The notes beneath the pieces are model-generated. The model did no database searches. It was not told where the DNA came from and saw only the letters and a list, made by a program, of their open reading frames with translations. Shown here in pieces: positions 719-63,866 of a stretch of DNA of 64,000 nt. The stretch is taken from IMG/VR virus record IMGVR_UViG_3300037993_001242, positions 64,001 through 128,000 of that record; one strand, 5' to 3'. The DNA comes from a virus. Position numbers and translations under genes: made by a program. Every line of letters begins with the position of its first letter. Within the stretch, counting starts at the first letter, position 1.

Positions 719-1072
719 TCAGGCGATGATCGCGTACTGAAGCTCGTATCCGCGCTCTTTAACAAAATCATCAACTGCTTCCCGTTGCATGGGATTTAGT
801 GCTTCCGTGTTAGCGTACATAACGCGCCGCTCCACCGTGGCACGCACCCAACCAAGCTGTTTCATGTGCGAATACACATTCATGACTTTAGGATTTTTGA
901 TGACGTTCTCCTGTGCCCATTTTTGGTGGCCACCCACCTTGGTTATTTTGCCCTCTGGGCTGATCCAGTAATTGTCGGGCATAGGCTGCCACATGGTGCG
1001 CCCGTATACATCTTTACCGTAATCGATGCGCCCATATTCGAGCAGTGCGTCCACGACTTGTTTTGCGTCCAC
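719..1072 (-). CDS. Hypothetical protein with N-terminal AKQVVDALLE tag
   Basis: ORF-track start lies inside tRNA-Ser; GTG at 1072 follows GTAGTTA-N4. Confidence 0.75.
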   Translation of the reverse strand: MDAKQVVDALLEYGRIDYGKDVYGRTMWQPMPDNYWISPEGKITKVGGHQKWAQENVIKNPKVMNVYSHMKQLGWVRATVERRVMYANTEALNPMQREAVDDFVKERGYELQYAIIA

Positions 1073-1087
1073 GTCGTAACTACAAAA

Positions 1088-1175
1088 TGGCGGAGGGTAC
1101 AGGGATTCAACCTGTGCCGGTTTTACCCGGTCGACGGTTTTCAAGACCGTAGCATTCGCGCTCTGCCAACCCTCC
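1088..1175 (-). tRNA. tRNA-Ser(UGA)
   Basis: ACGGT-CT-TGA-AA-ACCGT, long variable arm, G73-CCA; C19/G56. Confidence 0.93.
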
Positions 1176-1176
1176 G

Positions 1177-1253
1177 TGGCGTCCCCGGCAGGAGTCCAAC
1201 CTGCGACACAGTCGTTTAGGAAACGACGGCTCTTGCAACTGAGCTACGGGGAC
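1177..1253 (-). tRNA. tRNA-Arg(CCU)
   Basis: GTCGT-TT-CCT-AA-ACGAC, CCA; C19/G56. Confidence 0.93.
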
Positions 1254-1257
1254 AAAA

Positions 1258-1875
1258 TCAAGTGACCAGATAACCACCACGCAGGAAACCGTGCCAGCCG
1301 CCACACACGATTGATCCGGCACCGGCGGCGCAGGTGTTCCCGTTCTTGTCTACGGTCAAATCTGGCGCAATGCCATGGCGCACCCAACATTCGTGCGGTT
1401 CCTTGGGCCGGGTGCAGTTGGAAGCCTGACTGTCAATCGACCACTCGCCGCCCGGCGTCCGGCAGACATAGTAATGCCCGTCCGAGCGTTTATAGCTGTC
1501 CGGCATCCACGCGGCGTCCCAGATAGCCCCCACGGGCGGCTGGCGCAGCGATGCAAGCTCCTGCGTGTCCGAACGCTGGTACAGCCGGTCGTAATTGACC
1601 TGCCATTCGTCACTTTCCAGAAACACATAGCCGCAGGCACATTGGCGGGGCCAGCGGAGATCATCGTGCGGAAACTGTTTCTCGTCATCGCCGCACGTCG
1701 GATGCTCGGCGTATTCAATCTTGGGATTGATTTCGGTGCTCACGTCGTGGTAGCCCTGTGGCAACGGGCATGGATTTTTGGGCGTATCCTCGCGCCAGTC
1801 CGACCGATACCGGCGCAGGGACAGGTTGTAAAAATTTGTGGGCGTCAGCAGAAAGCAACGGATCGGTTTACACAT
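1258..1875 (-). CDS. Hypothetical Cys/His/Trp-rich protein
   Basis: 205-aa ORF, GTATTTA-N4-ATG. Confidence 0.75.
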   Translation of the reverse strand: MCKPIRCFLLTPTNFYNLSLRRYRSDWREDTPKNPCPLPQGYHDVSTEINPKIEYAEHPTCGDDEKQFPHDDLRWPRQCACGYVFLESDEWQVNYDRLYQRSDTQELASLRQPPVGAIWDAAWMPDSYKRSDGHYYVCRTPGGEWSIDSQASNCTRPKEPHECWVRHGIAPDLTVDKNGNTCAAGAGSIVCGGWHGFLRGGYLVT

Positions 1876-1914
1876 GCCTTAAATACCGGCGATTATGACT
1901 GTATTTAGGTAGCT

Positions 1915-2373
1915 ATGATGCCTGAAAGTCGTTCGATTGCGCTTCAGCTTGCGCAGCGGTTCGTCGAATACAAGGACAGGATCGAGGAGGTTGCCGCGCA
2001 GGTGCGCCGCCACAAACGAATCCTCGATCTTTGCCCGGTGCCGATGTTTTTGACGGATGAACACGGGAAATGCGTCTACGTCAATCCCGCCAAACTCAAA
2101 CTCGTCGGGGGCACCCTTGGCGAAATGCAGTACGACGGTTGGCAGCACTTTGTTTACCCGGAAGACCTGCCCCACTTGCTGAACGCGTGGACTCAATTCG
2201 TTTTAGACCACAACCAGCACACTTTTTCGTATACGTACCGGTATCAGCGCGCTGATGGCTCGGTGCTGGAAGTTGTGACCGAAGCCAGAATGCTGGACGA
2301 CCACAGCATTGTCGGTTTTGTGCTGCCCGTGAAATGCAGCGGCTGTTTCGATTTTTTCACTGTACACGGATAA
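1915..2373 (+). CDS. Stand-alone PAS-domain protein
   Basis: PAS pattern PMFLTDEHGKCVYVNPA...WQHFVYPED...YRYQRADGS. Confidence 0.85.
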   Translation: MMPESRSIALQLAQRFVEYKDRIEEVAAQVRRHKRILDLCPVPMFLTDEHGKCVYVNPAKLKLVGGTLGEMQYDGWQHFVYPEDLPHLLNAWTQFVLDHNQHTFSYTYRYQRADGSVLEVVTEARMLDDHSIVGFVLPVKCSGCFDFFTVHG

Positions 2374-2447
2374 TGCCTTTTTCATTTGGTGTATTTACTC
2401 CACAAGGTGTTTTTCCTTGAAGTTAAAATACGCAAAATCCATATAAA

Positions 2448-2903
2448 ATGAACAACATAATCAAAGCAACAACTGTCGGTTTGATCTGCACTGCGTCGCT
2501 GCTGGTCTGTCCGCTGTCCACGAAGGCGCAGTTCGTAACCAATCTCGTCACCTTCAGCAATGTGGTCATTCGGTCATCATCAGATGTCACCGGCCCTTAC
2601 ACTAATTTGTTTACGTTGCCGGATGTTACCCTTGAGTACCGGTATCACGTGGGATCGCTTCAACCGTTTTTTTATCATTTTAAGCTGAGCACGCCGGTCA
2701 TTGATGCTGATCTGTTTGAAACCAGCTTGACGCTCCAATATGCCTTCAATGCGGGCGGCCCTTACGATGACATTTATACTTATCCAACCATTGCTGTTAC
2801 CAATCCGGCAGGAAACGCCTTTTTCCGTTCTGCTTTCGATTTGACCGACACTAATTTTGTGTTCGTTGACCCTTACACCGTTCAGTTTGTACCGCCGCCA
2901 TAA
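2448..2903 (+). CDS. Secreted protein
   Basis: Signal peptide ending TKA-Q; beta-rich mature part. Confidence 0.7.
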   Translation: MNNIIKATTVGLICTASLLVCPLSTKAQFVTNLVTFSNVVIRSSSDVTGPYTNLFTLPDVTLEYRYHVGSLQPFFYHFKLSTPVIDADLFETSLTLQYAFNAGGPYDDIYTYPTIAVTNPAGNAFFRSAFDLTDTNFVFVDPYTVQFVPPP

Positions 2904-2906
2904 AAT

Positions 2907-2983
2907 TGGCACTCCCGGCAGGATTCCAACCTGCGACCTTGAATTTAGAAAATTCCTGCTCTATGCAACTGAGCTACGGGAGC
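2907..2983 (-). tRNA. tRNA-Arg(UCU)
   Basis: Loop TT-TCT-AA, CCA; C19/G56. Confidence 0.93.
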
Positions 2984-8791: not shown

Positions 8792-8819
8792 AGTGTATAC
8801 GCGTTAGATTTCTTGTCAA
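8792..8819 (-). promoter_or_regulatory. Sigma70-type promoter
   Basis: TTGACA-N16-TACACT. Confidence 0.7.
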
Positions 8820-14173: not shown

Positions 14174-14548
14174 ATGCAATACATTGAACCCATTTTGGCT
14201 GTTTTGGCGGCTTTGGCTCTCGTAGAACTAATCGCCTTTGTTGGCCTGCTGATTATTGTCATTGTCCTCTTCATAAAGCGGTACCTGCCGCCCGACGCGC
14301 CCATGGTTTACTGCACGCCCACCGTCACCACCGGAACAACTCCAGTCGAGTTCAAGATGACTCCTTTGCCGGACATCAAAGCGGCAGTCGCCGCCCGGAA
14401 AGAACCGCTGGGACGAAGCTGCGGCCACTGCGGTACGCGCATCAAAACCGATCCCGTAAGAGGCGTCGTGGTGGGAGAAAACTCTTACCATGTATACGCC
14501 TGTCCGGCCTGCAAGCGAGAGACGTTGCTGCCTGCCAAACTTGTTTAG
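14174..14548 (+). CDS. Membrane-anchored Zn-ribbon protein
   Basis: N-terminal TM helix; CGHC and CPAC. Confidence 0.65.
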   Translation: MQYIEPILAVLAALALVELIAFVGLLIIVIVLFIKRYLPPDAPMVYCTPTVTTGTTPVEFKMTPLPDIKAAVAARKEPLGRSCGHCGTRIKTDPVRGVVVGENSYHVYACPACKRETLLPAKLV

Positions 14549-15654
14549 CCCTGTTTGGAACGCAGCTTTTGAACAAGATCGCGGATGTAGCGTTGGCCTT
14601 CCGGGTCGCCGCGTATAACTTGGGTGACGATGCGCTTGAATTCCCGTGGGGGCTGATGGATTAAATAGTCGTAAACGTGGGGCAACATGGCCTGATCTTC
14701 CTCCGTGTCGCCGAAAGCGCGCATGAAGCGCCGCCAAGCGCCGGGGCCGAGCATCACATCCCATTGTTCGTCGGTCAGCGTGTCAGCCTTGCCCCGGACA
14801 TACTTTCGTGTTTCCGGGTCGGCATCGTCTTCGTAGGACAGGTACTCCATCAGACCTTTCACGATTTCCTGCACCAAGACCGGAAAGACCACCGCTTGCG
14901 CCCGGATCAAAGGCACGCCATCGTGGTCTTTGGTCAAGCTCACGCTGCCGCCCGCCGGAGCTTCGCTCATAAACGCTTTCCAGTGTTCTTCGGGAATGGC
15001 CCAATAGGCGAACTCGCCGACGGAAACCATCGTGCCGTACATGTTAAGTAAACGCGGATCAATCTGATTAAGCCGGTCGGCGGCGAGATGGAATGCGTAA
15101 TTTTTGTTTATCGCGTTGCCCTGAATCATCATGTTAACAAACCGCCGCTTGGCAACTTCGTCACCCAACTGCTGCGCGATTTCAGGTATCTGAAGATCGG
15201 TGCGTTCCGGGTCGTCCGGCTCCGGCTCCAGATGCTTGCGGCTCAAGGTGACGTTCTCCGTCAGTTCGGCTTGAATCTTCAAATCGCCGCTTTCAATGGC
15301 CTTTCTGGCTCCCCGGAATTCCGGCAGGTCGAGCACTAAATTGACGGCAAGCTGTTGCAGTTCATCCCGGTGTTCCTCTTCGATGCGCATGGCCGTCATC
15401 ACCGACTGCATCATCTGGCCCATCACCTGCTGAACATCAGCCCGGCTGCGGGGATGCACGCCGGTATAATGCTCGATCTTGCGGATCAGGGCCGGATAAG
15501 ACTCCGAAGCCGCCACGTCGCCGGGGAAGTCCGGGCCGTAAGGGTGCTCCCCGTGCTCGATCCGGCGCTTTTTCTCCGGGTCGATGTAATCGGGTTGGCC
15601 ACCAAAGTCAATGGGAGCCTCGGTGAGAATCCGTCTGGCCAGTGGCTTGGGCAT
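14545..15654 (-). CDS. Hypothetical, probable virion protein
   Basis: 369 aa from MPKPLARRILTE; coupled to upstream gene by TAA/ATG overlap. Confidence 0.75.
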   Translation of the reverse strand: MPKPLARRILTEAPIDFGGQPDYIDPEKKRRIEHGEHPYGPDFPGDVAASESYPALIRKIEHYTGVHPRSRADVQQVMGQMMQSVMTAMRIEEEHRDELQQLAVNLVLDLPEFRGARKAIESGDLKIQAELTENVTLSRKHLEPEPDDPERTDLQIPEIAQQLGDEVAKRRFVNMMIQGNAINKNYAFHLAADRLNQIDPRLLNMYGTMVSVGEFAYWAIPEEHWKAFMSEAPAGGSVSLTKDHDGVPLIRAQAVVFPVLVQEIVKGLMEYLSYEDDADPETRKYVRGKADTLTDEQWDVMLGPGAWRRFMRAFGDTEEDQAMLPHVYDYLIHQPPREFKRIVTQVIRGDPEGQRYIRDLVQKLRSKQG

Positions 15655-15920
15655 TAACAGCCTTTGTCGTCTTCCAACAGGTTGGCGATTACCTGCCGGG
15701 CATTGGAATCCGTGTAGGTTTGATCCATGCCGTAGGCCGCCTTGGGGGCTGGTTCTTGGCCCGGCTCCACGTCGCGCCGCCGCCATGGGGTTTCCGGCTC
15801 GTCAGGGCTTTTATCCGGTCGGGCTGGCTCAACACCGGGTTTAGTTGTGGGCGGAGCTTCCGTTGGAGCTTCAGTCCCACCAGCGGTCAACGGGCGTTTA
15901 AAAAATTGTCGTGCATTCAT
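15654..15920 (-). CDS. Small Pro/Glu-rich protein with C-terminal ARQVIANLLE
   Basis: GTAGTTA-N5-ATG. Confidence 0.65.
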   Translation of the reverse strand: MNARQFFKRPLTAGGTEAPTEAPPTTKPGVEPARPDKSPDEPETPWRRRDVEPGQEPAPKAAYGMDQTYTDSNARQVIANLLEDDKGC

Positions 15921-27774: not shown

Positions 27775-28307
27775 CCTATAAAGACGAACTTTGCCGAGCG
27801 ATGAAACACCTTTCAGCCCAACCTAAGATGCGTTTCATCGGCTACAATGTACGTTACAGCCACCGGGCGGAAGGAACCTTGGTTGATATTCCAGAGCAGC
27901 AATTGATCGAAACGCCGGTGGCCGAGAATTTGATCATTGGACTGGCAACCGGCTACGCCCTGCAAAATTTTACCGTCATGGCTTACATCGAGCGCTTCGA
28001 TTTTGTCCTTAACGCGCTTGATGCCCTGATCAATCACCTGTCCAAAATCAAAAGCATGTCGGGCGGCCAATTCAATCCGAACATCCTCATTCGCACCCTC
28101 GTTGGAAATAGAAAATATCCGCTTTTTAGCGGCATGACGCACACACAGGATTTTTCAGAACCTCTTAGCCAGATGTTAAGATTTCCTGTTGTTCAGCTTC
28201 ATACGCCCGATGCGGTATTTAGGGAATATGCCCGCGCTATCGATGAATTGCAGGAGCATTCAACGCTATTGGTCGAATATCGCGACAATTATACACTCGA
28301 ATGTTAA
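27771..28307 (+). CDS. TPP-dependent E1 beta/transketolase pyrimidine-binding subunit
   Basis: ETPVAENLIIGLATGYAL...RFDFVLNALDALIN. Confidence 0.88.
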   Translation: MTYKDELCRAMKHLSAQPKMRFIGYNVRYSHRAEGTLVDIPEQQLIETPVAENLIIGLATGYALQNFTVMAYIERFDFVLNALDALINHLSKIKSMSGGQFNPNILIRTLVGNRKYPLFSGMTHTQDFSEPLSQMLRFPVVQLHTPDAVFREYARAIDELQEHSTLLVEYRDNYTLEC

Positions 28308-34921: not shown

Positions 34922-35242
34922 TCAGAAATTGTAGTAATTCAACCGTTTCATTGCCCGGTATGCGTTTTTGGCACCAAGGGAACCGCGCCGCTCAATCGCC
35001 CGCTGAAGAATGGCCTGCGCGATGGACGCGTTGTCAAACGGAGACTGGCGGCGTTCACCCTGCAAGGTGCTAATGGTGCCATCCTTGACCAGTCGCTGAT
35101 AAAGCTCGCGGGCGTCACGGGTGATGTCATCGACTCCCTCGTCAAAATCGACGGTTTCCATGTACTGCGCAGCCACTGTGCGCGGATTAAATTCATCCGG
35201 GCCAGTTTCCAGCAAAGTGTCAACGACTACGCGGGCCGTCAT
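34922..35242 (-). CDS. Tagged hypothetical protein (ARVVVDTLLE-TGPDEFNP)
   Basis: GTAGTTA-N4-ATG. Confidence 0.75.
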   Translation of the reverse strand: MTARVVVDTLLETGPDEFNPRTVAAQYMETVDFDEGVDDITRDARELYQRLVKDGTISTLQGERRQSPFDNASIAQAILQRAIERRGSLGAKNAYRAMKRLNYYNF

Positions 35243-38144: not shown

Positions 38145-39014
38145 ATGCTTATGCGAAAAAACCTGCTTGAATTTCTGTTCGGCGAAGTAGCCGTTCGCCA
38201 GACAAGCGCTGATCTTGGCGAAAATATCGTCAAAATCTTCGAGGAAGCGGACGAACTGGAGGCCGTGCAAATGGTCGCCAACAAAAAGCCGCTGGCGGAC
38301 GCGCTCAAGTCCATCGGCATTGGCCAAGCCGTCGAAGCTGGATACCAGATGGCGGAAGTCAAATTTACCGATGCCGAAGCCTATCGGGCCGCCGTCCAGT
38401 TGCTTTCCGAGCCGGAAAACATCCACAAACTGGCCGAACTGGGCTGGGTCGCCACGCGGGGTGACGGCGATATTGCCCAGACCAATGAACCGCCGGAATA
38501 CAAAATGAATTTTGTCGAAATCAGCGTGGCCTCCGAGCTTGACAACAAGCAGGAAGCTCCTGATCTCGAAAAAGTGCTCAAAAAGGGACAGGAGTTTGCC
38601 GCAACCCCCGTGGACAGAGACGATGATCTCAACCCGGTGGACAACACCCGGTCGGACAAGAAGGGCGAAAAACAGGCGGGCGTGGGCAAAGCCAAAGAGG
38701 GCGAAGACCCGGAAGGCAAACCCAAAGGATCAACCAAAAAGACGGAGTCCCGGAAGGCGGCTGAATTGGCCAACGAACTTCTGGAATCACCCGACGTGAG
38801 CGAATGCGTCCTCGGCAGCAAACGCAAGCAAGCTCCCTTTTTTCGCACCGACCATAACCTCGGCAAAAAGAAGAAAAAGGTGAGCGAAACCACCATGGCT
38901 TCCGCCATCGCTCCGGTTGAGACCGGCATGGGCGTCCAAAAAACTTGGAACTCCCGGCTCGCTCGGCTACGCAGACGCCGCGATCCCAAAGGCATTGAAA
39001 AACGCGAAGAATAA
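38145..39014 (+). CDS. Acidic hypothetical protein, probable head/core
   Basis: Internal AAELANELLE motif. Confidence 0.7.
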   Translation: MLMRKNLLEFLFGEVAVRQTSADLGENIVKIFEEADELEAVQMVANKKPLADALKSIGIGQAVEAGYQMAEVKFTDAEAYRAAVQLLSEPENIHKLAELGWVATRGDGDIAQTNEPPEYKMNFVEISVASELDNKQEAPDLEKVLKKGQEFAATPVDRDDDLNPVDNTRSDKKGEKQAGVGKAKEGEDPEGKPKGSTKKTESRKAAELANELLESPDVSECVLGSKRKQAPFFRTDHNLGKKKKKVSETTMASAIAPVETGMGVQKTWNSRLARLRRRRDPKGIEKREE

Positions 39015-39022: not shown

Positions 39023-39640
39023 ATGAACACATTTCACGACTACGAAAGCATGGGCTGCGTGGACTTTGACCGCCACAATGCCGTCGTGCTTGAAACGTAT
39101 TCCGGTGTGGACATCATCAAGTGGCACGGGCGTATCACCGATCAGTTGGTCGGGATGGTAGAAGAAGCTGAAAAAGGCCGCAATTTCCCGTATGCCGACA
39201 AAGTCCGGGAATTCCTGAAGGCGTGGCGCGCCAACGAAATCACCGGCTCCATCAACCGCGAAACTCTCGAAATCCTCAAAGCGGCGGCGGACATGCTGGC
39301 CGTGGACAACTGGAATTTCCGTTCCTATTTTTCCAGTCTGGCCACTCAGTTGAAGGTCTTGATTGGCTCCGAAGAGCAGCTTCCTCGCGACGTGGATATG
39401 GCGCAAAACGAGCCGCTGGCCGGTACTGGCGGCGCTGGACGCGGCGCTCCGCCCATGTCACCCACCTTTGGGCCGGAGGGCAAGCCGGAAGACGAAATTC
39501 CACCCGGCGGTGCTGCTCCCGATGAAGGCGGCGCACCCGGCGCAGCGCCTCCCGGTGAAGGCCCCGTCCCACCCGGTGAGGAAGATGAAGAAGAAAAAAA
39601 GAAAAAACTGCCCGGTGAGGAGGCCATTGCCAGTGCATGA
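39023..39640 (+). CDS. Hypothetical protein with Gly/Pro/Glu-rich tail
   Basis: 205 aa, in operon. Confidence 0.7.
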   Translation: MNTFHDYESMGCVDFDRHNAVVLETYSGVDIIKWHGRITDQLVGMVEEAEKGRNFPYADKVREFLKAWRANEITGSINRETLEILKAAADMLAVDNWNFRSYFSSLATQLKVLIGSEEQLPRDVDMAQNEPLAGTGGAGRGAPPMSPTFGPEGKPEDEIPPGGAAPDEGGAPGAAPPGEGPVPPGEEDEEEKKKKLPGEEAIASA

Positions 39641-39933
39641 ACCGCGCTCAACAGTTAGTCCGAAAGCTGGTTGAAGCTGGCCCTGACGAACTTCGCCCCA
39701 AAGGTGAAGTACTGCGCCTTCCTGATCCTGTTCCAGAAATCTATTACGTTGATCCCGAAAACGAAGAGGCTGGTTTAAGCTGGCACAATGATTTGGCCAG
39801 ACAGTTAAATCGTTTATCCGGCTTGACCGAAAGGCTCAAACGCGCCAACCAGAATCAAGACGCAGCCGACCTCGCTGAAATCATCGAGCGCGTTGCTGAG
39901 TTTGAAAATGTGGGCAAGGTTCAGCAACAATGA
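39637..39933 (+). CDS. Tagged hypothetical protein (AQQLVRKLVE-AGPDELRP)
   Basis: ATGA overlap with upstream gene. Confidence 0.7.
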   Translation: MNRAQQLVRKLVEAGPDELRPKGEVLRLPDPVPEIYYVDPENEEAGLSWHNDLARQLNRLSGLTERLKRANQNQDAADLAEIIERVAEFENVGKVQQQ

Positions 39934-40262
39934 CGCGTGCCCAACACATTGTATACGATCTGCTGGAAGCTGACCCGGATGAAGTTGATCCACAGCATTA
40001 CGTAGATGCGGTTTACGGCGAAGTCACCCGTGGCGAAGTTAACGCGATTTCGGCCATGACGGCGAATATGTTTTATCATCGCACCGCCACAACTAGAGAC
40101 GGCAAATCGCCGCTGCGTGCCCGCCGGAATGGCCGAACCAAGACGTGGAAGCGCCAACCGGGCGTTTTTCGCATCCCGGTCAAATATGGCCTGTACGATT
40201 ACTTTTACATCGACAACAACAATGCTGACGAATGGTCAACCATCCCCAATCCGCCCAAATGA
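39930..40262 (+). CDS. Tagged hypothetical protein (AQHIVYDLLE-ADPDEVDP)
   Basis: Cargo RRNGRTKTWKRQP..FRIPVKYGLY. Confidence 0.75.
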   Translation: MTRAQHIVYDLLEADPDEVDPQHYVDAVYGEVTRGEVNAISAMTANMFYHRTATTRDGKSPLRARRNGRTKTWKRQPGVFRIPVKYGLYDYFYIDNNNADEWSTIPNPPK

Positions 40263-40573
40263 AAGCCAAACAGCTAGTCGCCACCCTGCTGGAGCAGCAA
40301 CCCGATCCTGATGCGCTCCCGGCCAAGGCCGAGGCCCATCGGCTGATCGGTCAAACGCTTTACATGCTCGTGCTGTACAGCCAGCGCGACGATATGATCG
40401 CGGTGGATGCGCACAACCTCTCCCTTGAGCAAGTTGGCGTTGAAGTCACCAAATGGCGCGCTAAGGGTATGCCTGCCTTCAGGCAGGAGCAGCAAGAAGC
40501 GCACGATGACTCATTTGAACCGGAGGATTGTCCGCAGTGCGACGAAGAAATAAAACGGATAACACAACAGTAG
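40259..40573 (+). CDS. Tagged hypothetical protein (AKQLVATLLE)
   Basis: ATGA overlap; start MKAKQ. Confidence 0.7.
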   Translation: MKAKQLVATLLEQQPDPDALPAKAEAHRLIGQTLYMLVLYSQRDDMIAVDAHNLSLEQVGVEVTKWRAKGMPAFRQEQQEAHDDSFEPEDCPQCDEEIKRITQQ

Positions 40574-41192: not shown

Positions 41193-42263
41193 GTGAACGC
41201 AAAGGACATTGTCATCCTCGTTTGCGAGAAGAAAGCTCCAGCCCCCTACTGGTCGCACACTCGCGGCATCTACGCTGACCTCTCCGAGTGGCCGCGCCAC
41301 ATCGATTACTACGTAAAATGCCCAGAATGCGGTAACGTTCATGGTTTTTACAAAAGCCTCGCTGACGCCCGGAGCAAGCGGCTGTGCCAGAACTGCGATC
41401 ACGACCGCGTTGAAAAGCTCAAAAAGGAAATCGCCAAGGTAACGGAAAACGAACAGCCGCCGGTGCCGTTTGACCCTGATCTCCCAGTCAATCCCAAAGC
41501 CGAAATTAAACGCTATATTGGCGCGGACTGGATCGATCTGGCCAAATGGGAACTTTCAAAAGATTTGGGCGAAGAGCTTGTGTTCGACCCTGACCACTAC
41601 ACAAACAAGGATATAGACCCTGAGCTTCCAGACGATTACGTCAAAGTTACTTTTAAAGCGATTGACAGCGATATAAATTACATCGTATACAAGACCGAAG
41701 GTGACGCCGAGAAAGAAGCGCTGGAAGACCTTAAAAACAGTTTTGAGGATGAACCTGATACCTATTCGGAATGGCTGATTAACTTTATCGACACGGATAA
41801 ACTTCGTGACACACTTATGTCAGACGAAGAAAACATGATCCGGGAGCAATTCGAGGAAGAGCATTCCGATTACGAAGACAAAGCCAAAGCCATGGTTGAA
41901 GCTGGCAAGTTGGATGAAGATTCGTTCTTCAAACTTAATGGTGAATTTCGTAAATTAACACCGCAACGCGAGCGTCTGATTGATCTGGCTGTGGATGAAT
42001 GGGTTGAAGAAAGCGCTAAAGACCGTTTGAGCGATCCGGTTGAGTACATGAAAGAATTGGGTTGGGGTGACAGGACTGAAACCGACCGGTATACAGGTAG
42101 AAAAATTCCTTCCATGTTTGAGCAAATAAAAGACTGGGGTGCGCTGGACTATGAAAAAGCTGCCGAACAGGCCGTTGCGGCTGATGGCTGGCAGCACAGT
42201 CTTTCAAGATATGATGGCAAATCAATTAACCTGCCCGGTGGATCAGTGGCAATAAGAGAATAA
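41193..42263 (+). CDS. Tagged acidic protein with Zn ribbon
   Basis: NAKDIVILVCE; CPECG...CQNC. Confidence 0.75.
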   Translation: MNAKDIVILVCEKKAPAPYWSHTRGIYADLSEWPRHIDYYVKCPECGNVHGFYKSLADARSKRLCQNCDHDRVEKLKKEIAKVTENEQPPVPFDPDLPVNPKAEIKRYIGADWIDLAKWELSKDLGEELVFDPDHYTNKDIDPELPDDYVKVTFKAIDSDINYIVYKTEGDAEKEALEDLKNSFEDEPDTYSEWLINFIDTDKLRDTLMSDEENMIREQFEEEHSDYEDKAKAMVEAGKLDEDSFFKLNGEFRKLTPQRERLIDLAVDEWVEESAKDRLSDPVEYMKELGWGDRTETDRYTGRKIPSMFEQIKDWGALDYEKAAEQAVAADGWQHSLSRYDGKSINLPGGSVAIRE

Positions 42264-42267: not shown

Positions 42268-42969
42268 ATGGCTACCTTAAAGGATGTCGTCGTGGAAACC
42301 GGTCAAATCCTGATCGACCACCCCCTGTGGTCGGAACTGCGGGAACTGTGGCACACCATCCAATGGCAGCAGGCCCCCAACGATTCTGGCGATGGCGTCG
42401 CCCTGAGTCCGGCGGCTGAGCCTATCGTCCGGCTCCATCCAAACCTCCTCCAAAATCCAAATGCGGGCAAAGCGGTGCTGCGTGAATTTGGGAAGTTCAT
42501 CCTGCGCCGGGGCGGCGACCGCGCTGAGACCATCTGGGACAAAAAGCTCGGCGTTCCTGACGAAGAACACATTGATGAATTTGCCAAAAAGCTCAGTGAC
42601 CCGGAATTGCGCAAGACCTGCAAAACGTACGAAGAACTCCTCCAGAGCTACCCCCAGCGGGGCCACTCCGTCGAACGGCTGATCGCCATCCACATGGCCA
42701 ACGCTTTGATCGCCAATAACATTCCCTATCCTGACAGCGTGGGTGTAAACATTAAGACATGGGGGCCAACCGCTGAGTTCGCCAACCACAAAAAATATCA
42801 TTCGTTGGTGCCCCTGACCTCGGCCTATTGCCCACCGATAATCCATGCAGATTTCGGGACGGCCTTTGCCGAACTGATCATCGACGACCTTCACAGCGTG
42901 CAGGATACGTCCGTGGCTTACGCCCTGAAGGGAGTCATCCGCAACGTGCTCAAACGCGCCGAAGACTAA
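42268..42969 (+). CDS. Hypothetical protein
   Basis: 233-aa ORF in operon. Confidence 0.7.
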   Translation: MATLKDVVVETGQILIDHPLWSELRELWHTIQWQQAPNDSGDGVALSPAAEPIVRLHPNLLQNPNAGKAVLREFGKFILRRGGDRAETIWDKKLGVPDEEHIDEFAKKLSDPELRKTCKTYEELLQSYPQRGHSVERLIAIHMANALIANNIPYPDSVGVNIKTWGPTAEFANHKKYHSLVPLTSAYCPPIIHADFGTAFAELIIDDLHSVQDTSVAYALKGVIRNVLKRAED

Positions 42970-43451
42970 TCCTGATAAATGAGCTTGTCGTCACCGACGT
43001 AAAGGTAAACTTCTCCGTAGTGTCTGGCAGCCTCTTGCAGCCGGTCGCGAGCATCTTCCGGTAAATTATCACGGTCAAAAAATCCGGCTCCATGGCCGTT
43101 TCGGCTTAACCAAAAATCGTGACCTCCTTGCGCAGCCGCGCTCCACTCAACGTTGGTCATGTCGTACAGCGCCAAATCCGCCGCATTTTCCTGCTGAAAG
43201 CGCGCACAATCCTGCATCATCTGATCCACTGTTTCACGGGCAATATCCTTGGTGCTGTAGTTTTTATCGAGAGGTTCGCCGCCGGAAGGAGTGCTTTCGT
43301 CGTTGGTCGACCACAGCGCCGCCTCCATGTAAGCTTTCGTGAAATCGTCCAAATCTTCCCACCACGGCGTAGTTGTCCTGACATACTGCCGTGGATCAAC
43401 TTCGTCCGGGCCAACTTCGAGCAGCCGATTTACCAATTGTTTAGCACGCAC
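42966..43451 (-). CDS. Tagged phage protein (AKQLVNRLLE-VGPDEVDP)
   Basis: Cargo DFTKAYMEAALWS...GHDFWLSRNGHGAGF; TAGTTA-N4-GTG. Confidence 0.8.
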   Translation of the reverse strand: MRAKQLVNRLLEVGPDEVDPRQYVRTTTPWWEDLDDFTKAYMEAALWSTNDESTPSGGEPLDKNYSTKDIARETVDQMMQDCARFQQENAADLALYDMTNVEWSAAAQGGHDFWLSRNGHGAGFFDRDNLPEDARDRLQEAARHYGEVYLYVGDDKLIYQD

Positions 43452-47660: not shown

Positions 47661-47688
47661 TTGACTGTCAAATATCGTCGTATACATT
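47661..47688 (+). promoter_or_regulatory. Sigma70-type promoter
   Basis: TTGACT-N16-TACATT-N8-ATG. Confidence 0.6.
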
Positions 47689-48331: not shown

Positions 48332-48772
48332 ATGAAAGCAAAAGACTTGATCACCGGAAGACATTTACACGAAGGCGCAGAAGACGAGGCCCGCCGAGGC
48401 CCTCAACCGCCGCCGGGAAGTACCAGCGGCCAAATGCCGCCAGCAGGCACTACGAGTAATCCGCTTGATCCGCGCCGGATGCGCCGGGGAGGCCCGCCCG
48501 GACGACTGCCGGGGCCGCCGCGTCTCTTTGCCGGGCCGGAAGAAAGTGCCCTGAAAGACATCATGCTGCTTTTCCTGACCGAAGTCGCGGGCAACAGCTA
48601 CGACGGCGCAATCGTGCGCAAACTGGTGGAAGGAAAAGACCTCGACCGGGGCGAACTCCAGCACATTTTGGACGAAGGAGCGCGCATCGAAAGACTGCCG
48701 GAATCACACGCCAAAGTTCTGGAAAAAATCCATCAGTTGATCCAAAGAATGCCCGCCGCGCCGCCGCGTTAA
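48332..48772 (+). CDS. Tagged Pro/Gly-rich hypothetical protein
   Basis: MKAKDLITGRHLHE; GTAGTTA-N6-ATG. Confidence 0.65.
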   Translation: MKAKDLITGRHLHEGAEDEARRGPQPPPGSTSGQMPPAGTTSNPLDPRRMRRGGPPGRLPGPPRLFAGPEESALKDIMLLFLTEVAGNSYDGAIVRKLVEGKDLDRGELQHILDEGARIERLPESHAKVLEKIHQLIQRMPAAPPR

Positions 48773-53714: not shown

Positions 53715-54514
53715 AACTGGAACTCAAAATCACCAACCGCAGCCGGTACGACGACATCGAAGTCGACATCCTCGTCCGGTTTGCGCTCAGTACCGTGCAT
53801 CAAGTGTGGCCCATCGAACGCTCGCCTTTGAGACTCAAAGTAACGAACACCCGCAAAAGCTGGGGCGGCTACGGTTACATCCGGGGCTATGGAACGGACG
53901 CCGAGGGCTTTCATGCCTGTATACGCATCGGAGCACCTGCCCGTTTCGTTAATCCCCGCCGCATTTCCTACGACTATAAATGGAAGGACATGCCCGTGAT
54001 GTTCCTGAACAATTATCGCGAAGCACTGGTATACGTAACCGCGCACGAACTCGCCCACAACGCGGGCAAGTCGGGGCGCAAAGATGGCGAGATGCGCTGT
54101 GACTTTGCCGGGCAAGATGCCGTCGACCAGTACCGGAAACAACAAGCGGTAATCGACGGCCAGATCGCTGACCGCATCCGCCGCCGCGACGAACGCCAGA
54201 GCAGCACTGAACAGCGCCATGCAACACGGGCGGCTTTTGTAAAATCCGCCGCCGGTCGATTGCAAAAATCCGAACGGATGCTGGTTTACTGGAAACGCCG
54301 GGCCAAGATCGCCAAAACCAAAATCAGCCGGTACCAGCGCAGTGTTACGGCTTTGCGAAAGAGCGCGGCCCGCGCAGTCAATCCTCCAGCAGGTAGCCCA
54401 CCACCTGCTGCGCCACAGGACTCTCCGCCGTCATGCCCGCTGGAAGCGGCGGCAGGTTATCCACCGGTGTCTCCGCCGGACTCGGTTCCTCACTGTGCGC
54501 CGCAATGCGGTTAA
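53711..54514 (+). CDS. HExxH (SprT-like) metalloprotein
   Basis: VTAHELAHN; C-terminus overlaps the opposite-strand gene. Confidence 0.6.
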   Translation: MKLELKITNRSRYDDIEVDILVRFALSTVHQVWPIERSPLRLKVTNTRKSWGGYGYIRGYGTDAEGFHACIRIGAPARFVNPRRISYDYKWKDMPVMFLNNYREALVYVTAHELAHNAGKSGRKDGEMRCDFAGQDAVDQYRKQQAVIDGQIADRIRRRDERQSSTEQRHATRAAFVKSAAGRLQKSERMLVYWKRRAKIAKTKISRYQRSVTALRKSAARAVNPPAGSPPPAAPQDSPPSCPLEAAAGYPPVSPPDSVPHCAPQCG

Positions 54515-54686
54515 AGTAATCGTGGGCGCGCCGCTGAGCGTAGTCTTCGCTGACGTTTTCACCTTCCGCTTCGTAGGACGTGAACTTGTCCTTTATCTGG
54601 CCGCCCTGAAGCACCAAAAATTGTGTCCCGCCGAAATTGACAACTTCCATTCCGGGGAACCGCTCGTCGGTGTAAATGCGCTTCAT
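54378..54686 (-). CDS. Hypothetical protein with C-terminal AQQVVGYLLE
   Basis: GTAGTTA-N6-ATG. Confidence 0.65.
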   Translation of the reverse strand: MKRIYTDERFPGMEVVNFGGTQFLVLQGGQIKDKFTSYEAEGENVSEDYAQRRAHDYFNRIAAHSEEPSPAETPVDNLPPLPAGMTAESPVAQQVVGYLLED

Positions 54687-54716
54687 TTTCAATAACTACT
54701 GCGTCGTATTTAATGC

Positions 54717-57774: not shown

Positions 57775-58224
57775 TTAACCATTAAGCATCAAATCAACAA
57801 GTTCTTGTGCCGACTCAATGGCGAATTTGGACTTGATCCGGCTCAATCGGTTTTGAGCAACGCCAAGTTCACGCTCGCTACGAAGAACGTGCTTACCAGC
57901 GATGTGTGCCAATGCGCGCTTGAGCGTGGTGACCACCAACGGTGGCAAGGTTCTGCCCCTTTCAGGATCGTGGACAAGGCCCCCACCGATGGCTTTTAAC
58001 AATTCCGAAAATGCCTGATCTGGCTCCAAGTCCAGAAACTTGTCAACCTGCTCCGGCGTAACCTTGCGCTGTGCCAGCCAGTCGTAAAGCGCTTGGGTGA
58101 CGTTTTCAGACGAATCCCCGCCGTCGAGAGCCTGCTTCAGCATCAAAAAAGCCGGGCTGAGAATCCCCGTGGGATTCGTCGGCCCGGATAGATCACTGAA
58201 TTTTGCAATGCCAAATTTTGGCAT
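57775..58224 (-). CDS. Hypothetical protein with C-terminal AQELVDLML
   Basis: 149 aa. Confidence 0.65.
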   Translation of the reverse strand: MPKFGIAKFSDLSGPTNPTGILSPAFLMLKQALDGGDSSENVTQALYDWLAQRKVTPEQVDKFLDLEPDQAFSELLKAIGGGLVHDPERGRTLPPLVVTTLKRALAHIAGKHVLRSERELGVAQNRLSRIKSKFAIESAQELVDLMLNG

Positions 58225-58684: not shown

Positions 58685-60124
58685 GTGAAAGCTGACGTGC
58701 TTGTTAATCTGCTACTCGAACTGAACGTGCTAAACGTTCAGGATATAGACAGAGAACTCAAAAAGCTCGCCGCCTACGTCGAAGACCCCCGCGCCCAGAA
58801 GTGGCTGATGCGGGTCGCCCGGAATTTCATCATCAACATCGATCAGTTGCTGAAACAGCCCTACCGCGCCAAAGCCGAACCTCGCGGCCATTTTGGCAGC
58901 AAGTATCGTTACGAACCCACCGGCGGATTTGATCCCAAGCAGGCTCCCGCCGAACCGTCATCGGAAACCAGAATCAAATGGTGGGGCGAACAGCCGATGG
59001 CCGGTGATCCCAATGCCTGCCACACCTGCGGCGGCAGCGGTTACGTCCAGACGATCAAACACACGGAAACGGGCGAAGAAGTCCAAGCTCCGTGGACAAC
59101 CCGTGATCCTGAAGAAGAGCGCAAACGCTGCCCAGACTGTAAAGGCACCGGAAAACGAAAATATCAAAAGCCAAGCGGGGGCGAAGGTTTCTTTCCTGAA
59201 TCCAAAACCCTTATCGAAGCCGGGCGCAAAAGAGCAGCAGCAATGTCACCCGAAGAGCCAATAGAACCTGATCCGGCGGGTGTCTACACCAGCACACTGC
59301 ATGAGCCTGCGATCCAACGGCACATCGACCAAAACTTCCGGCCTTATCGAACCAAGACCGCGCCCAAAAAAGAACTTTTTGGCGGGCCGCCACCGGCTTC
59401 AAAAGTGGAGCCGTGGGTCAAAGAGCGAGAAACGGAACAGGAACTGCATCATTTCGACCCGATCCAAGTGCGCCGCCGGGAACTCTGGATTAACCTCGAA
59501 AATCTGGTCAATTATTTCAACTGGAAGTCCAGCGTGCTGGCCAAAAGAGACAGTGAAAAACCGGAGGAACAAAACCGGGCCAGAAGCGCTGAACTGTTCT
59601 TCCGCCAACTGGAGACGATGCCGACTGCCGATCTCGAAGGTTTCCGGGACATCATGCGCCAAGGGCAGGATTACGCTTACGACGTGGAAAACCGGCCATG
59701 GCTGTACATGACCGACCCGAAGTTGGTCTCCGAATACCGGGGTTTGAAGCTGATCCGAGCCACACTCTGGCAGACAGTTTATCATTTGAGCCGACGCAAG
59801 ACAGCGAAGGACGATGAACCCACGTGGTGTACCAATACGGAGCACCACGCCAAGAGCTATTCAAGTCAGGGGCCGCTTTATTTCGTCGACAAAAACGGCT
59901 ACCCGTACGTCCTGCTGCATTTTGAAACCACGCAAGCTAAAGGTCTGAACGATGCTGAAATCGAAGCACCGGTAGCCAAAGAAATCGCTCCTCTCTTCGC
60001 CGATCCCCAACGCTTCCCTCTTGAAAAATTTGGCGAAACCGAAAGACGATTTGGCGGCGGCGGGCTGGCCCTTTTGAAGGCGGCGGTCAAAGCCTATCGG
60101 CAAAAAGCCGGTATACAGGGTTAA
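58685..60124 (+). CDS. Tagged PcfJ-like protein with DnaJ-type Zn finger
   Basis: ADVLVNLLLE tag; CHTCGGSG/CPDCKGTG; TWCT...GPLYFV...QAKGLND. Confidence 0.7.
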   Translation: MKADVLVNLLLELNVLNVQDIDRELKKLAAYVEDPRAQKWLMRVARNFIINIDQLLKQPYRAKAEPRGHFGSKYRYEPTGGFDPKQAPAEPSSETRIKWWGEQPMAGDPNACHTCGGSGYVQTIKHTETGEEVQAPWTTRDPEEERKRCPDCKGTGKRKYQKPSGGEGFFPESKTLIEAGRKRAAAMSPEEPIEPDPAGVYTSTLHEPAIQRHIDQNFRPYRTKTAPKKELFGGPPPASKVEPWVKERETEQELHHFDPIQVRRRELWINLENLVNYFNWKSSVLAKRDSEKPEEQNRARSAELFFRQLETMPTADLEGFRDIMRQGQDYAYDVENRPWLYMTDPKLVSEYRGLKLIRATLWQTVYHLSRRKTAKDDEPTWCTNTEHHAKSYSSQGPLYFVDKNGYPYVLLHFETTQAKGLNDAEIEAPVAKEIAPLFADPQRFPLEKFGETERRFGGGGLALLKAAVKAYRQKAGIQG

Positions 60125-60182
60125 AATTTCGTAAATACGAAATTTTATTGACGTTTGGCCCGGAATTTAGTTCTCTGTGGGC

Positions 60183-60983
60183 ATGAACGTAATCAACGTC
60201 AATGACGTGGAACGTGAATTGCGCAAAATCGCGGCACATGCCATCTATCCACAGGCGCAGCAATGGGTGCTCTCCGTTGGCCGAAACCATATTCTTGGCA
60301 AAATCGGCGAAAAAGACGCGGATATGAATTTCCGGGTTTACGATCCGGCCAAGATCAGACCTGATGTATACGGTGAACCACCACCCGTCGCCAAATTGCC
60401 GGAGTGGGCCAAGGAAGCGATCAAACAAGGCGAGGAACTCCATTGGTTTGACCCGGTTCAAGTGCAGCGCCGACCTTTGTGGCAGGCCATCAACGTCATC
60501 GTGACGTGGTTTAACATCTGGCCGCCCACCGACACCCGCTTGCGCCGCCTTGACCGTGTCAATTTCCACACGGCCTTGGCTGGAGCCGCCATGTGGTTTC
60601 AGGATGTTCAGCAAAACATCTGGGAGTACGTCAAAGACAAGCCGCCGGTGATGAAAACCTACGAGCACGGCTTCTTTTGGGTGCGACTGGTGACTGCCCT
60701 TCACTTCGAGCGCGAAGGACGCCTGATGAACCATTGCGTCGGCAACGGTTCCTATTACGAGCGCTGGCGCAACGCCAAGTCAGAGTACTACTCGCTGCGC
60801 GACAAGCACAACAAACCCCATGCCACGGTCGAAGTCACGGTGGATATGCGCCGCCGGGGAGCCGTACTCCAGTGCAAAGGAAACAGCAATCACAAGCCCG
60901 CACCAATTTACCAGCCGTACATCCGCCGGTTTTTCAACGACATGGGCTGGACGATCTCCGGTGATCAGCATAACATCGATTAA
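60183..60983 (+). CDS. PcfJ-like protein
   Basis: REGRLMNHCVG...YSLRD..NKPHATVE...QCKGNSN. Confidence 0.8.
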   Translation: MNVINVNDVERELRKIAAHAIYPQAQQWVLSVGRNHILGKIGEKDADMNFRVYDPAKIRPDVYGEPPPVAKLPEWAKEAIKQGEELHWFDPVQVQRRPLWQAINVIVTWFNIWPPTDTRLRRLDRVNFHTALAGAAMWFQDVQQNIWEYVKDKPPVMKTYEHGFFWVRLVTALHFEREGRLMNHCVGNGSYYERWRNAKSEYYSLRDKHNKPHATVEVTVDMRRRGAVLQCKGNSNHKPAPIYQPYIRRFFNDMGWTISGDQHNID

Positions 60984-61521: not shown

Positions 61522-61577
61522 AACTGGCCAGCGCACTCACGCTGGCCAGTTGACGACTGCCGAAGCAGACTGATTGA

Positions 61578-62111
61578 TTATTTGTTGTCCGAGCGTACTG
61601 CCGGACGTTTCAGCGTCGCCAAAGGCATTACCGGCGCATTGCCCGATTCACCCAGTTTGATCCCGGCCACAATCGCCCCCAAGTACGACTTGGCGGCGTA
61701 GCTGCCGTTCACAGCATCTTTGACATCGGATGCCCAGTAAATCTGATAAATGCTTTCGATGGTGGTCGTCAGGATGCCTGCGATTGGCGTCTGGAGCACG
61801 GCTACAGGCAGCTTTTGCAGCGCGGCTTCCAAGGCACCCGGCGAGTAGTCTGTCCCGCCCAGAACGTCGCCAATGGCAGCCGCCGCAAGATTGGCGTAAT
61901 TGGTGGTCTCCGCCGCATTTTGCGTCATGCCGTAAGCCACCCCTTCAGCCACCGCTGTTGACATGTAATTGGAAACCGTGTTGATGGTATTGGTGCTGGT
62001 GATCAAACTACCGCCACCGAGGATTGCACAACCCGGCGTTACCAACGCCGTGACCAGTAAGCCGCCGAGAAGCAGCGCGGCACCTGCTGTTTTGATGTAT
62101 ACGCTTTTCAT
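61578..62111 (-). CDS. Lipoprotein
   Basis: Lipobox VTPGC. Confidence 0.7.
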   Translation of the reverse strand: MKSVYIKTAGAALLLGGLLVTALVTPGCAILGGGSLITSTNTINTVSNYMSTAVAEGVAYGMTQNAAETTNYANLAAAAIGDVLGGTDYSPGALEAALQKLPVAVLQTPIAGILTTTIESIYQIYWASDVKDAVNGSYAAKSYLGAIVAGIKLGESGNAPVMPLATLKRPAVRSDNK

Positions 62112-62151
62112 ATTTTTGCTTGTTAACTACACGACAAAGAACGGATTAAAA

Positions 62152-62487
62152 ATGGGTTCTTTTTACGATATGAGCGCGAAAGTTATTCACGGCCAATACC
62201 ATCACGGTGCCAACCACCGTCACTGGCGATCATTTTTTCAGGAAACCACCGGCTACAAAGTGGGTTCACCTGCGGATACGCGGGCATTTGCACCGGAAGG
62301 CCCGACAATCGCCATCAATCCTGATATTGGGCCGGTTCCCGGCGAAATCGCGATTCCCACCGCAATTCGCGTTTATTTGGATGGGCCGACGCCATTCATT
62401 CGGACTTTCCGGCGCGGGCTAAATTGGCTCGACTGCAAAGTAACGCACATCCATGGCGTCATCTCCAGTTTCCTGCGCGGTCAGTAA
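62152..62487 (+). CDS. Hypothetical protein
   Basis: Start MGSFYDM. Confidence 0.55.
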   Translation: MGSFYDMSAKVIHGQYHHGANHRHWRSFFQETTGYKVGSPADTRAFAPEGPTIAINPDIGPVPGEIAIPTAIRVYLDGPTPFIRTFRRGLNWLDCKVTHIHGVISSFLRGQ

Positions 62488-62704
62488 CCAAACGATCAAG
62501 ATACTCGATGATTTCATCGGGATTGCCGTCGGCGTTCAAGGCTTCCAACCATTGCTGGATGCGCAGGCGTACGTCACCCTTTTCTTTGACCTTGGCCCAG
62601 TTGTTCCTGAAATCGAAACGTCCGACTTCGTCCTCCATGAACTGACAGGCCAAGTCCTCGGTATCCACCGGGCTGCGCGTTCTACGTATAAGATCAGGCG
62701 TCAT
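62459..62704 (-). CDS. Hypothetical protein
   Basis: GTATTTA-N5-ATG (MTPDLIRR). Confidence 0.55.
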   Translation of the reverse strand: MTPDLIRRTRSPVDTEDLACQFMEDEVGRFDFRNNWAKVKEKGDVRLRIQQWLEALNADGNPDEIIEYLDRLVTDRAGNWR

Positions 62705-62739
62705 CGCCTTTAAATACAACTTGTAGCTATTAGAGATAT

Positions 62740-63429
62740 ATGGCCGCAACACCTTGCAACGTACTGAACACGGTATCCCAGTTCCAACTGGACGCCATGA
62801 CGCAGTTGAACAAAAAGCTCATGAGCCTGCAAAATACGGCGCAGCTTTTGGAGCGCAACGGCGACAGCGCGGCATCCTTCGTAACTCAGCTTAACAATTC
62901 GACGGACAGCTTGACCCGGATCACGGATGTTGACAAAGACCTGTACGACAAGCTGGTTGCAGCCTGTCCTTTCCTGACCAATCCGATCACCGGGCCAAAG
63001 GGTACCAGCGCCAGTGCCGCTTCCAGCGTGGAATCATTGCAAGCCACGGTGATGAAATCATACGACAATCTGATCAATAAACTGCTCAATCATCCCTACA
63101 GCCGGATGCAAAAGCTTCAGGGTGAAATGGACAACATCATCAACCAGTTTGCCGCTAAAAATATACTGGCAACCAACTTCACCCGCTGTATGCAGCAGGC
63201 GTGCAGCACAATTCTTTTCAGTGACCTTGCGCCGGATAATCTCAAGCAACAAGCCCAGATGTACCAGCGTAATTTTACAAACGGGACAGCCAGAGTGTTG
63301 TCACAGGCACAACAGGATAAAGCGGACTTGGTCACGTCGTTAATCGGCCATATTCAAGGTCTTGGCTCAACGGCAGGTAAAACGTATGCCACCGCCAAAG
63401 CCGCATTAACGGCATCTCAAACCGTATGA
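62740..63429 (+). CDS. Helical hypothetical protein (probable structural)
   Basis: 229 aa. Confidence 0.7.
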   Translation: MAATPCNVLNTVSQFQLDAMTQLNKKLMSLQNTAQLLERNGDSAASFVTQLNNSTDSLTRITDVDKDLYDKLVAACPFLTNPITGPKGTSASAASSVESLQATVMKSYDNLINKLLNHPYSRMQKLQGEMDNIINQFAAKNILATNFTRCMQQACSTILFSDLAPDNLKQQAQMYQRNFTNGTARVLSQAQQDKADLVTSLIGHIQGLGSTAGKTYATAKAALTASQTV

Positions 63430-63866
63430 ACGCTGTCGCTCTAGTGACTAAACTGCTGGAAGACGATCCCGACGTGATTCGTCCAAAGGATTACCTGCGC
63501 CAACTTCCAGCGCGAAAACAGGAACGCTGGTGCTTTTCCTCTGCTGACCTACAGCAGCCTGAAAACTGCCACAGCTACGACGAACTCGTCGCCAACGTAA
63601 TAACTGGAGAAGGCGGAGCATCCCGTAGCGTGGAATTCGACAATGAAGAACAAACAGACGTTATTGTCTACAGGAATGGCATCGTCACAAATAAATTTGA
63701 TGATGGAACGATAGGCGTGCCGAAAGAAATTCAAAAACTAGCCGATGACGTTGAGGAGTTGGTAAATCCACGCGGTAATACCGATGAAACCGCTTTTTGC
63801 AACGTTTGGCGCAACGTGTGGACGGACGAAACCGGTGTCTTTCTTGGCTGGGCACCGGAAGAATAG
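63426..63866 (+). CDS. Tagged hypothetical protein (AVALVTKLLE-DDPDVIRP)
   Basis: ATGA overlap with upstream gene; ends in TAG. Confidence 0.75.
   Translation: MNAVALVTKLLEDDPDVIRPKDYLRQLPARKQERWCFSSADLQQPENCHSYDELVANVITGEGGASRSVEFDNEEQTDVIVYRNGIVTNKFDDGTIGVPKEIQKLADDVEELVNPRGNTDETAFCNVWRNVWTDETGVFLGWAPEE

Follow-up and report, generated by a model that had tools for sequence, protein, structure and literature searches.

The stretch of DNA considered here, referred to as the window, comprises 64,000 nucleotides (nt), bases 64,001-128,000 of one 199,098-bp IMG/VR virus record (IMGVR_UViG_3300037993_001242) with an estimated completeness of 82%; coordinates are those of the window unless marked genome. 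It carries genes for a Baseplate_J-like protein, an NAD-dependent ligase, a DnaB-type helicase, and a family A DNA polymerase, along with a set of genes whose products bear a common short peptide, usually at the N terminus, which we call the tag. The genome also has a 571-amino-acid (aa) protease-plus-scaffold open reading frame (ORF; genome 25726-27441, minus strand), the protease domain taking up about its first 190 residues, containing Peptidase_S77 (PF03420, the T4 gp21 family; 60.9 bits) and encodes a major capsid protein of the Gp23 family (PF07068; 102 bits), both scores being above cut-off. Since it combines this gp21-family protease and Gp23-family capsid protein with the window genes just listed, the source is, on its gene content, a distant, uncultured T4-like phage. 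The genome under study (G000) was compared with relatives (G001 to G005 among them), which were retrieved via the capsid protein; only 58 to 87 of 321 proteins are common to G000 and these relatives.

The core of the tag is A-x-x-[LIVM]-[LIVMT]-x-x-[LIVM]-[LIVMC]-E. A regular-expression scan of six-frame ORFs over the 199,098-bp genome returned 30 core matches, 11 within the window, with a start codon 2 to 5 codons upstream in about 22 of the 30. Among the 321 gene calls, 24 copies were observed versus 1.06 expected (300 residue shuffles; maximum, 4), and N-terminal copies numbered 16 versus 0.08 expected. A small hidden Markov model and de novo (blind) clustering of possible N termini brought the family to about 33 copies, of which 11 to 13 fall in the window. 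These genome-wide counts bear out a first-pass annotation of the window, which had picked out the tag from the letters alone: every peptide that it listed is present where it had been placed. Ten of its 13 examples are clean, while two (AKDIVILVCE of the gene at 41193 and AELANELLE at 38760-38786) are weak and one (AKDLITGRHLHE, 48332) lies outside the motif. The complete tag has two parts, an amphipathic helix of ~12 residues (M-x-A-x-x-[LI]-V-x-x-L-L-E), which terminates in L-L-E in nearly all copies, and an acidic, proline-rich segment with the consensus x-[GD]-P-D-x-V-x-P-K-x-Y-L. Fourteen copies have the long form, M-x-A-x-x-[LI]-V-x-x-L-L-E-x-[GD]-P-D-x-[VIL]-x-P-[KR]-x-Y-L. In an AlphaFold2 model of the 161-aa tagged protein (42966-43451), the tag is predicted as a helix at residues 2-13, coil at 14-19, and a short helix at 20-26, with lower confidence than the body; a Foldseek search of this model against the PDB gave no match.

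The tag recurs on bodies that have little else in common. BLAST comparisons among tagged proteins found no similarity outside the tag, save for one weak sub-family (63426 and three genes outside the window), which agrees with the earlier description of the bearers as unrelated. At tag positions where two copies have the same residue, the same codon was used in only 43% of tag pairs, and four Ala, four Val, and four Leu codons are employed. Because synonymous codons vary between copies and the bodies are unrelated, the tag is evidently maintained at the protein level rather than the DNA level, with selection acting on the peptide. A DNA-level repeat or recombination cassette was considered and is ruled out by the scrambled synonymous sites. 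Two degenerate DNA patterns of the tag, scanned in IMG/VR, gave chance-level matches or none.

Two comparisons separate the tag from the body behind it. The body of the 161-aa protein belongs to a family of 1910 database proteins, mostly of about 130 aa, which are untagged and begin at the body; the roughly 30-residue tag occurs only in its closest relatives, one of which has the helix alone. Within the window, 1.5 kb separate the tagged 479-aa protein at 58685 from an untagged paralog encoded downstream (start at 60177 or 60183), a side-by-side control that the first-pass annotation had rightly recognized: the tagged copy reads tag plus LNVLNVQDIDRELKK, and the paralog begins directly with MNVINVNDVERELRK. 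Most tagged bodies are unmatched in Pfam, and PHROGs likewise leave most of them unnamed, as they do most genes headed by the start signal TAGTTA (see below). Named bodies include a PDZ-domain protein (genome 6125-6955, with a weak tag) and zinc ribbons; a PcfJ-like domain is seen on the untagged paralog at 60183.

The tag differs between lineages. In G001 the helix is kept and the linker differs; G002 has at least 11 copies of M-S-R-A-R-A-I-L-E-A-E-T-P-R-x-x-L-K-R-L-P; in G003, [IL]-[LI]-x-x-L-L-E leads into D-D-E-E-D-F-D-L-K-D-L; and the tags of G005 are mixed. That G002 and G003 lack tags was at one point considered and was rejected, as their diverged versions had escaped the first profile. 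Because many tags change together within each genome while synonymous sites are scrambled, the pattern points to recognition of the tag by a phage-encoded partner. In G004 no clear tag family was found. Four proteins of 224 to 277 aa in that genome (locus L058 record; 101757, 108972, 110577, and 146979, plus strand) begin M-N-A-R-x-x-I-D-E-M-A-x-Y and may be a lineage version of the tag or simply paralogs.

Lineage-specific versions would suit any phage-encoded partner, including a hub outside the capsid (e.g., the replisome, a nucleotide-synthesis complex, RNA polymerase, or the membrane) to which the helix would recruit proteins with no cleavage or packaging. The presence of the tag at either terminus fits such docking, as does the identity of some bearers: a NUDIX-thymidylate kinase fusion, an HAD phosphatase, and a disordered, C-terminally tagged 88-aa protein whose gene adjoins that of the DNA polymerase. 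A hub of this kind sits poorly with the replication proteins themselves. The regular-expression scan and gene annotation of the genome found no tag on the DNA polymerase, ligase, or helicases. We regard docking as quite unlikely, also in view of the joints and the head operons described next.

Relatives of the tag occur in long chains. The tag profile, run against 1.84 billion representative proteins, gave 74 matches, two of them ankyrin false positives. About 50 of the genuine matches are small proteins tagged at residue 1, and the rest are chains of 200 to 2419 aa with up to 11 copies. The chains contain 75 internal joints, at which the helix is often missing; a Glu lies 1 to 3 residues before x-P-D in 68 of them, with L, V, I, Y, F, or M at P3 in 56 of these 68 and S, A, D, G, or T at P1', statistics that are biased in part, as the chains were recovered with a profile containing L-L-E. 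T4 gp21 cleaves after L/I-x-E (PMC9026906), and the pattern at these predicted joints, hydrophobic-x-E and then a small residue, matches that motif. In 14 relatives, the capsid propeptide keeps [LM]-D-E before V-T-R-T. Docking to a hub would leave unexplained why hydrophobic-x-E with a small residue should be found at joints without a helix.

According to Pfam, five database chain proteins contain InPase and one contains a 2H phosphoesterase, and no peptidase domain was found in seven chains. A metagenome scan keyed on InPase recovered mostly ordinary giant polyvalent proteins without joints, one InPase chain with a G002-type tag at its start and at four joints, and no head genes nearby. The polyprotein P0122 was absent from the viral contigs searched. 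The G000 genome has no InPase domain, and its only multi-module tagged proteins are two with two modules each (genome 58636-59244 and 59256-59789).

Chains of up to 11 modules with conserved joints could also mean that the tag is a polyprotein joint and nothing else, so that the products of fused small genes would be separated in the cytoplasm, whether by the head protease or by some other enzyme, without capsid loading. Neighboring tagged genes overlap by 4 nt and could easily fuse. Most copies in G000 head single-module genes, which leave nothing to separate, and no other protease domain is seen in the chains; moreover, T4-type prohead proteases work inside the prohead (PMC9026906). On these grounds, a joint-only role seems to us less likely again than docking.

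A second line of evidence comes from the head operon. In G000 and its relatives, the genes immediately upstream of the protease encode small acidic proteins whose N-terminal helix is similar and ends in [LV]-L-G-E, with S, D, or A as the next residue; their position is presumably that of the T4 prohead-core genes 67 and 68 (gp67/gp68), judging by gene order. In G001 and G005, a tagged gene lies inside the head operon, and the G005 copy has a further joint. Neither the similar head-operon N termini nor the tagged genes within head operons are explained by docking. The same link, together with the internal joints, is left unexplained if the tag is a stability or turnover signal that sets the lifetime of accessory proteins through a protease or chaperone of the cell or the phage. 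Being short, terminal, amphipathic, and present on many unrelated proteins, the tag would be apt for that purpose, and the PDZ protein is itself weakly tagged, whereas the lineage-specific versions favor a phage partner over a host one; we consider a turnover signal highly improbable.

Tagged genes and head genes also share a start signal. TAGTTA (or TAATTA) lies 3 to 9 nt, mostly 4 nt, ahead of the start codon, typically as TAGTTA-N4-ATG. There are 52 genomic copies of TAGTTA, 32 with ATG or GTG 3 to 6 nt after, and the hexamer is 38-fold enriched within 20 nt upstream of gene starts, where a Shine-Dalgarno sequence is absent. TAGTTA-N3-9-ATG/GTG precedes 14 of 33 tagged genes versus 16 of 290 others (odds ratio, 12.6; P = 4e-8), and a cruder count gave the same trend in G001, G005, and G002. 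The signal heads the head operon in seven phages, the unit made up of the tagged gene 34922-35242 and the Baseplate_J gene, and a gene with a connector-like PHROG match, so that a start signal common to head and baseplate operons is a further feature that docking leaves unexplained. We infer that TAGTTA is a late-type signal; it may be a late promoter yielding leaderless mRNAs or an unusual translation signal. A search for the T4-type late promoter found TATAAATA just once in the genome, and the 110 nt before the capsid gene hold nothing conserved, the capsid gene being read through from the scaffold gene.

A second class of start, of sigma-70 type, combines an AAATTTT run with TTGACA and, about 17 nt further on, (G)TATACA; it heads non-structural genes (HD, NADAR, and DUF) and zero tagged genes. 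Sites of this class lie at 8799, 47201, and 25709 on the minus strand and at 47681 and 50111 on the plus strand, with others elsewhere in the genome. At these sites the start codon follows only 8 to 11 nt after the -10 box, and the mRNAs would be nearly leaderless. GTATACA, which contains the palindrome GTATAC, is present in 148 copies per 199 kb versus roughly 24 expected, on both strands and mostly within genes, an abundance far beyond its use as a -10 box.

In T4, the capsid-targeting sequence (CTS) of internal proteins is an N-terminal propeptide of 10 to 19 residues that loads any fused protein into the prohead core and is then removed (PMC9026906, PMC3012670, PMC10229621). On balance, we lean toward a T4-style head-cargo system in which the tag serves as both address label and cut site, a larger, two-part variant of the T4 CTS system. 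The helix would bind the scaffolding core of the prohead, as the CTS of T4 internal proteins does, and the T4-type prohead protease would then cleave after the Glu of L-L-E, leaving the D-P-D-x-V-D-P-K-x-Y-L segment at the new mature N terminus. The mature proteins would remain in the head and enter the next host alongside the DNA, and in related phages the protease would split the multi-module chains at this hydrophobic-x-E joint, with Ser or Ala following. The first-pass annotation had likewise proposed a capsid-targeting or protease signal; its protease half is supported in silico by the gp21-type protease, the cut motif, the joints, the head-operon N termini, and the shared start signal, while the tag proved longer and more complex than it had described.

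Several observations weigh against a head-cargo role. The helix stands at the extreme C terminus in three genes of G000 and two of G001 and also occurs inside proteins, while the T4 model is N-terminal; the two C-terminal copies reported earlier (15654-15920 and 54378-54695, both minus strand) are real. In three proteins the second half, D-P-D..P-K-x-Y-L, occurs without the helix, and this conserved segment goes beyond what a cut site requires. L/I-x-E is a short motif, the co-occurrence of the tag with a T4-type head arises partly by construction (the relatives having been chosen via the capsid protein), and TAGTTA may act in translation instead of as a late promoter. Most tagged proteins are acidic (median isoelectric point, 5.4); T4 internal proteins are described as basic. 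The NUDIX-thymidylate kinase fusion and the phosphatase, which is of HAD/PNKP type, are not classical head cargo, an objection that the InPase and 2H domains of database chains weaken.

The tag (LVNRLLEVGPDEVDP, e.g., 43445-43390 on the minus strand) is also closely similar to the second helix of an ankyrin repeat with its loop (IVNRLLEAGADVN), and the profile matches included two ankyrin proteins. This resemblance would suit a tag with no common function, whether a recombination cassette or a leftover half ankyrin repeat; another possibility is self-cleavage in the D-P-D..D-P-K segment, Asp-Pro bonds being chemically labile. The scrambled synonymous sites speak against a DNA-level cassette, and the tag is retained across relatives sharing under 30% of proteins, which makes this account scarcely credible to us. 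Membership in the ankyrin family was rejected: Ank_2 had no genome match at an E value of 0.1, no tagged protein had an Ank match, and the copies are single, not tandem 33-residue repeats.

A more elaborate form of the head-cargo reading would give the retained segment a role of its own. It is conceivable, and in our view unlikely, that the tag is a two-signal code for plug-in cargo, in which the helix would direct proteins to the prohead core, the protease would free the modules, and the retained D-P-D-x-V-D-P-K-x-Y-L would be a second signal (e.g., for holding in the head or ordered exit through the tail), with lineage versions barring the loading of cargo from co-infecting relatives. On that view, roughly one gene in ten of such phages would encode a pre-made, injected effector, nucleotide-modifying enzymes included.

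The tagged genes, their neighbors, and the start signals in the window are collected in Table 1.

Table 1. Tagged genes, neighboring genes, and TAGTTA-type start signals in the window
Feature	Position	Strand	Details
Tagged gene	719-1072	-	GTG start at 1072; helix AKQVVDALLE, 1066-1037; TAGTTA at 1082-1077, 4 nt before start
88-aa Pro/Glu-rich protein	15654-15920	-	Adjoins DNA polymerase gene; C-terminal ARQVIANLLE-DDKGC-stop, 15701-15672; TAGTTA-N5-ATG start; homologues in G001 and G002
Baseplate_J-like structural gene	32578-34920	-	1 nt downstream of tagged gene 34922-35242; one TAGTTA signal ahead of both
Tagged gene	34922-35242	-	Long tag ARVVVDTLLE-TGPDEFNP; helix 35236-35207; TAGTTA-N4-ATG start
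First gene of operon with four tagged genes	38145-39014	+	TAATTA start signal; weak internal joint-like AELANELLE-SPDV, 38760-38786
Tagged gene	39637-39933	+	Long tag AQQLVRKLVE-AGPDELRPK; helix 39646-39675
Tagged gene	39930-40262	+	Long tag AQHIVYDLLE-ADPDEVDPQHY; helix 39939-39968; G001 homologue still tagged, ASQVVDSLLE-AEPDFDP
Tagged gene	40259-40573	+	AKQLVATLLE-QQPDPDALPAK; helix 40265-40294
356-aa protein	41193-42263	+	Weak variant AKDIVILVCE, 41199-41228; G001 homologue N terminus MTPEAAIQAICEGK
161-aa tagged gene	42966-43451	-	AKQLVNRLLE-VGPDEVDPRQY; helix 43445-43416; TAGTTA-N4-GTG start
48332 gene	48332-48772	+	AKDLITGRHLHE, outside tag motif; TAGTTA-type start only
105-aa protein	54378-54695	-	C-terminal AQQVVGYLLE-D-stop, 54413-54384; TAGTTA 6 nt before ATG; G001 homologue, E value 2e-14
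479-aa tagged protein	58685-60124	+	ADVLVNLLLE, 58691-58720, then LNVLNVQDIDRELKK; G001 homologue keeps ANILVDLLLE
Untagged paralog of 58685	60177-60983 (start 60177/60183)	+	PcfJ-like domain; N terminus MNVINVNDVERELRK
Tagged gene	63426-63866	+	Long tag AVALVTKLLE-DDPDVIRPKDYL; helix 63432-63461
212-aa gene, extends past window end	63879-64000	+	C-terminal AQRIVTNLLE-S-stop, genome 128482-128517
TAGTTA/TAATTA sites	53, 1082, 10081, 15931, 35252, 35920, 43461, 44725, 54698	-	
TAGTTA/TAATTA sites	38132, 40571, 48320	+	

Other termini in the genome recall the tag to different degrees. A 369-aa gene (14545-15654, minus strand) overlaps the stop of the 88-aa C-terminally tagged gene, and its N terminus, MPKPLARRILTEAPIDFGGQPDYIDPEKK, is shortened and tag-like. 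Two proteins share the C terminus AQE[LV]VD[LT]MLNG-stop (window 57775-57810 and genome 13652-13687, both minus strand), a helix related to the tag without L-L-E. A second N-terminal tag family, M-I-P-E-x-G-[ST]-x-x-E-F-K-[RH]-x-V-L, is unrelated to the L-L-E tag and comprises 34 proteins, most of them zinc-ribbon proteins encoded together in a single minus-strand array (genome 192,500-199,000), plus scattered copies; a scan for the TAGTTA start signal found none on its members.

Two further genes call for comment. The capsid gene starts 10 codons 5' of the first in-frame ATG called (MVILNESGRP...; genome 25657-25686, minus strand), has a C/A-rich leader ahead, and keeps this start in about 30 related loci. 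A 707-aa radical SAM protein (28301-30424, plus strand) has a Hint (intein-type) domain near its N terminus.

If the head-cargo reading is correct, about a tenth of the phage's genes would encode ready-made injected proteins, far above T4's handful, and uncultured T4-like phages would load a changeable cargo by a simple peptide code. The tag would then offer a route, by sequence only, to listing injected effectors in metagenomes, which would likely be counter-defense and takeover proteins, mostly of unknown fold; it would also be a natural, modular means of bringing foreign proteins into phage capsids. New questions are posed by the tag versions of the different lineages and by the conserved peptide that would be left after cleavage.

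Other phages also carry processed proteins in their heads. In the giant phages phiKZ, 201phi2-1, and SPN3US, a prohead protease cuts many head-internal proteins after Glu in maturation (PMC5694885, PMC7411985). Cleavage after Glu, as predicted for the present tag, is the likeness, and the difference is that these are separate phage lineages. Their cleavage motif is A/S/G-x-E, not L/I-x-E, and to our knowledge no shared portable address peptide has been described for them. The Dar antirestriction proteins of P1 are head-packaged accessory proteins whose N-terminal regions are needed for packaging and which are processed (PMC9024508, PMC5512222). The Dar proteins and, on the present reading, the tagged proteins are alike in being accessory proteins that would enter the head and be injected; P1 differs in having no common short tag, a hierarchical loading via DarA and Hdf, and an unrelated head module.

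Polyvalent proteins (Iyer, Burroughs, Anand, de Souza, and Aravind, 2017; PMC5512222) are similar in that each joins small, unrelated domains in one chain and presumably travels with the DNA. They are recognized by 2 to 15 unrelated domains and by hallmark domains, and the database relatives of the tagged proteins have up to 11 joints, InPase, and 2H. The cutting of polyvalent proteins is attributed to zincin-like (MPTase) or papain-like domains that they themselves contain, with no report of a conserved peptide at their joints (PMC5512222). The chains described here differ in being without a peptidase domain and in carrying at their joints one conserved peptide of the head-protease type.

The closest parallel is the T4 CTS, found on IPI, IPII, IPIII, and Alt and processed by gp21. 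In both cases, short N-terminal propeptides ending in L/I-x-E stand on otherwise unrelated, fast-evolving proteins; the present phage also has a gp21-family protease and a gp23-family capsid protein, and its tagged genes lie in variable regions near tRNA genes. T4 Alt, moreover, is also cleaved at its C terminus (PMC9026906). The differences are considerable: about 33 genes are tagged here versus about 4 in T4, and the present tag is longer and two-part, with a conserved D-P-D..P-K-x-Y-L that would stay on the mature protein. Here the bearers are mostly acidic, C-terminal and internal copies occur, relatives have chains of up to 11 modules, and the system is known from sequence alone. When a tag was compared by tblastn with 50,697 phage records, the sole matches were three from Vibrio phages at chance level (E value, 3), and no homology to the T4 CTS was seen. 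The resemblance between the two systems is one of design and not of sequence.

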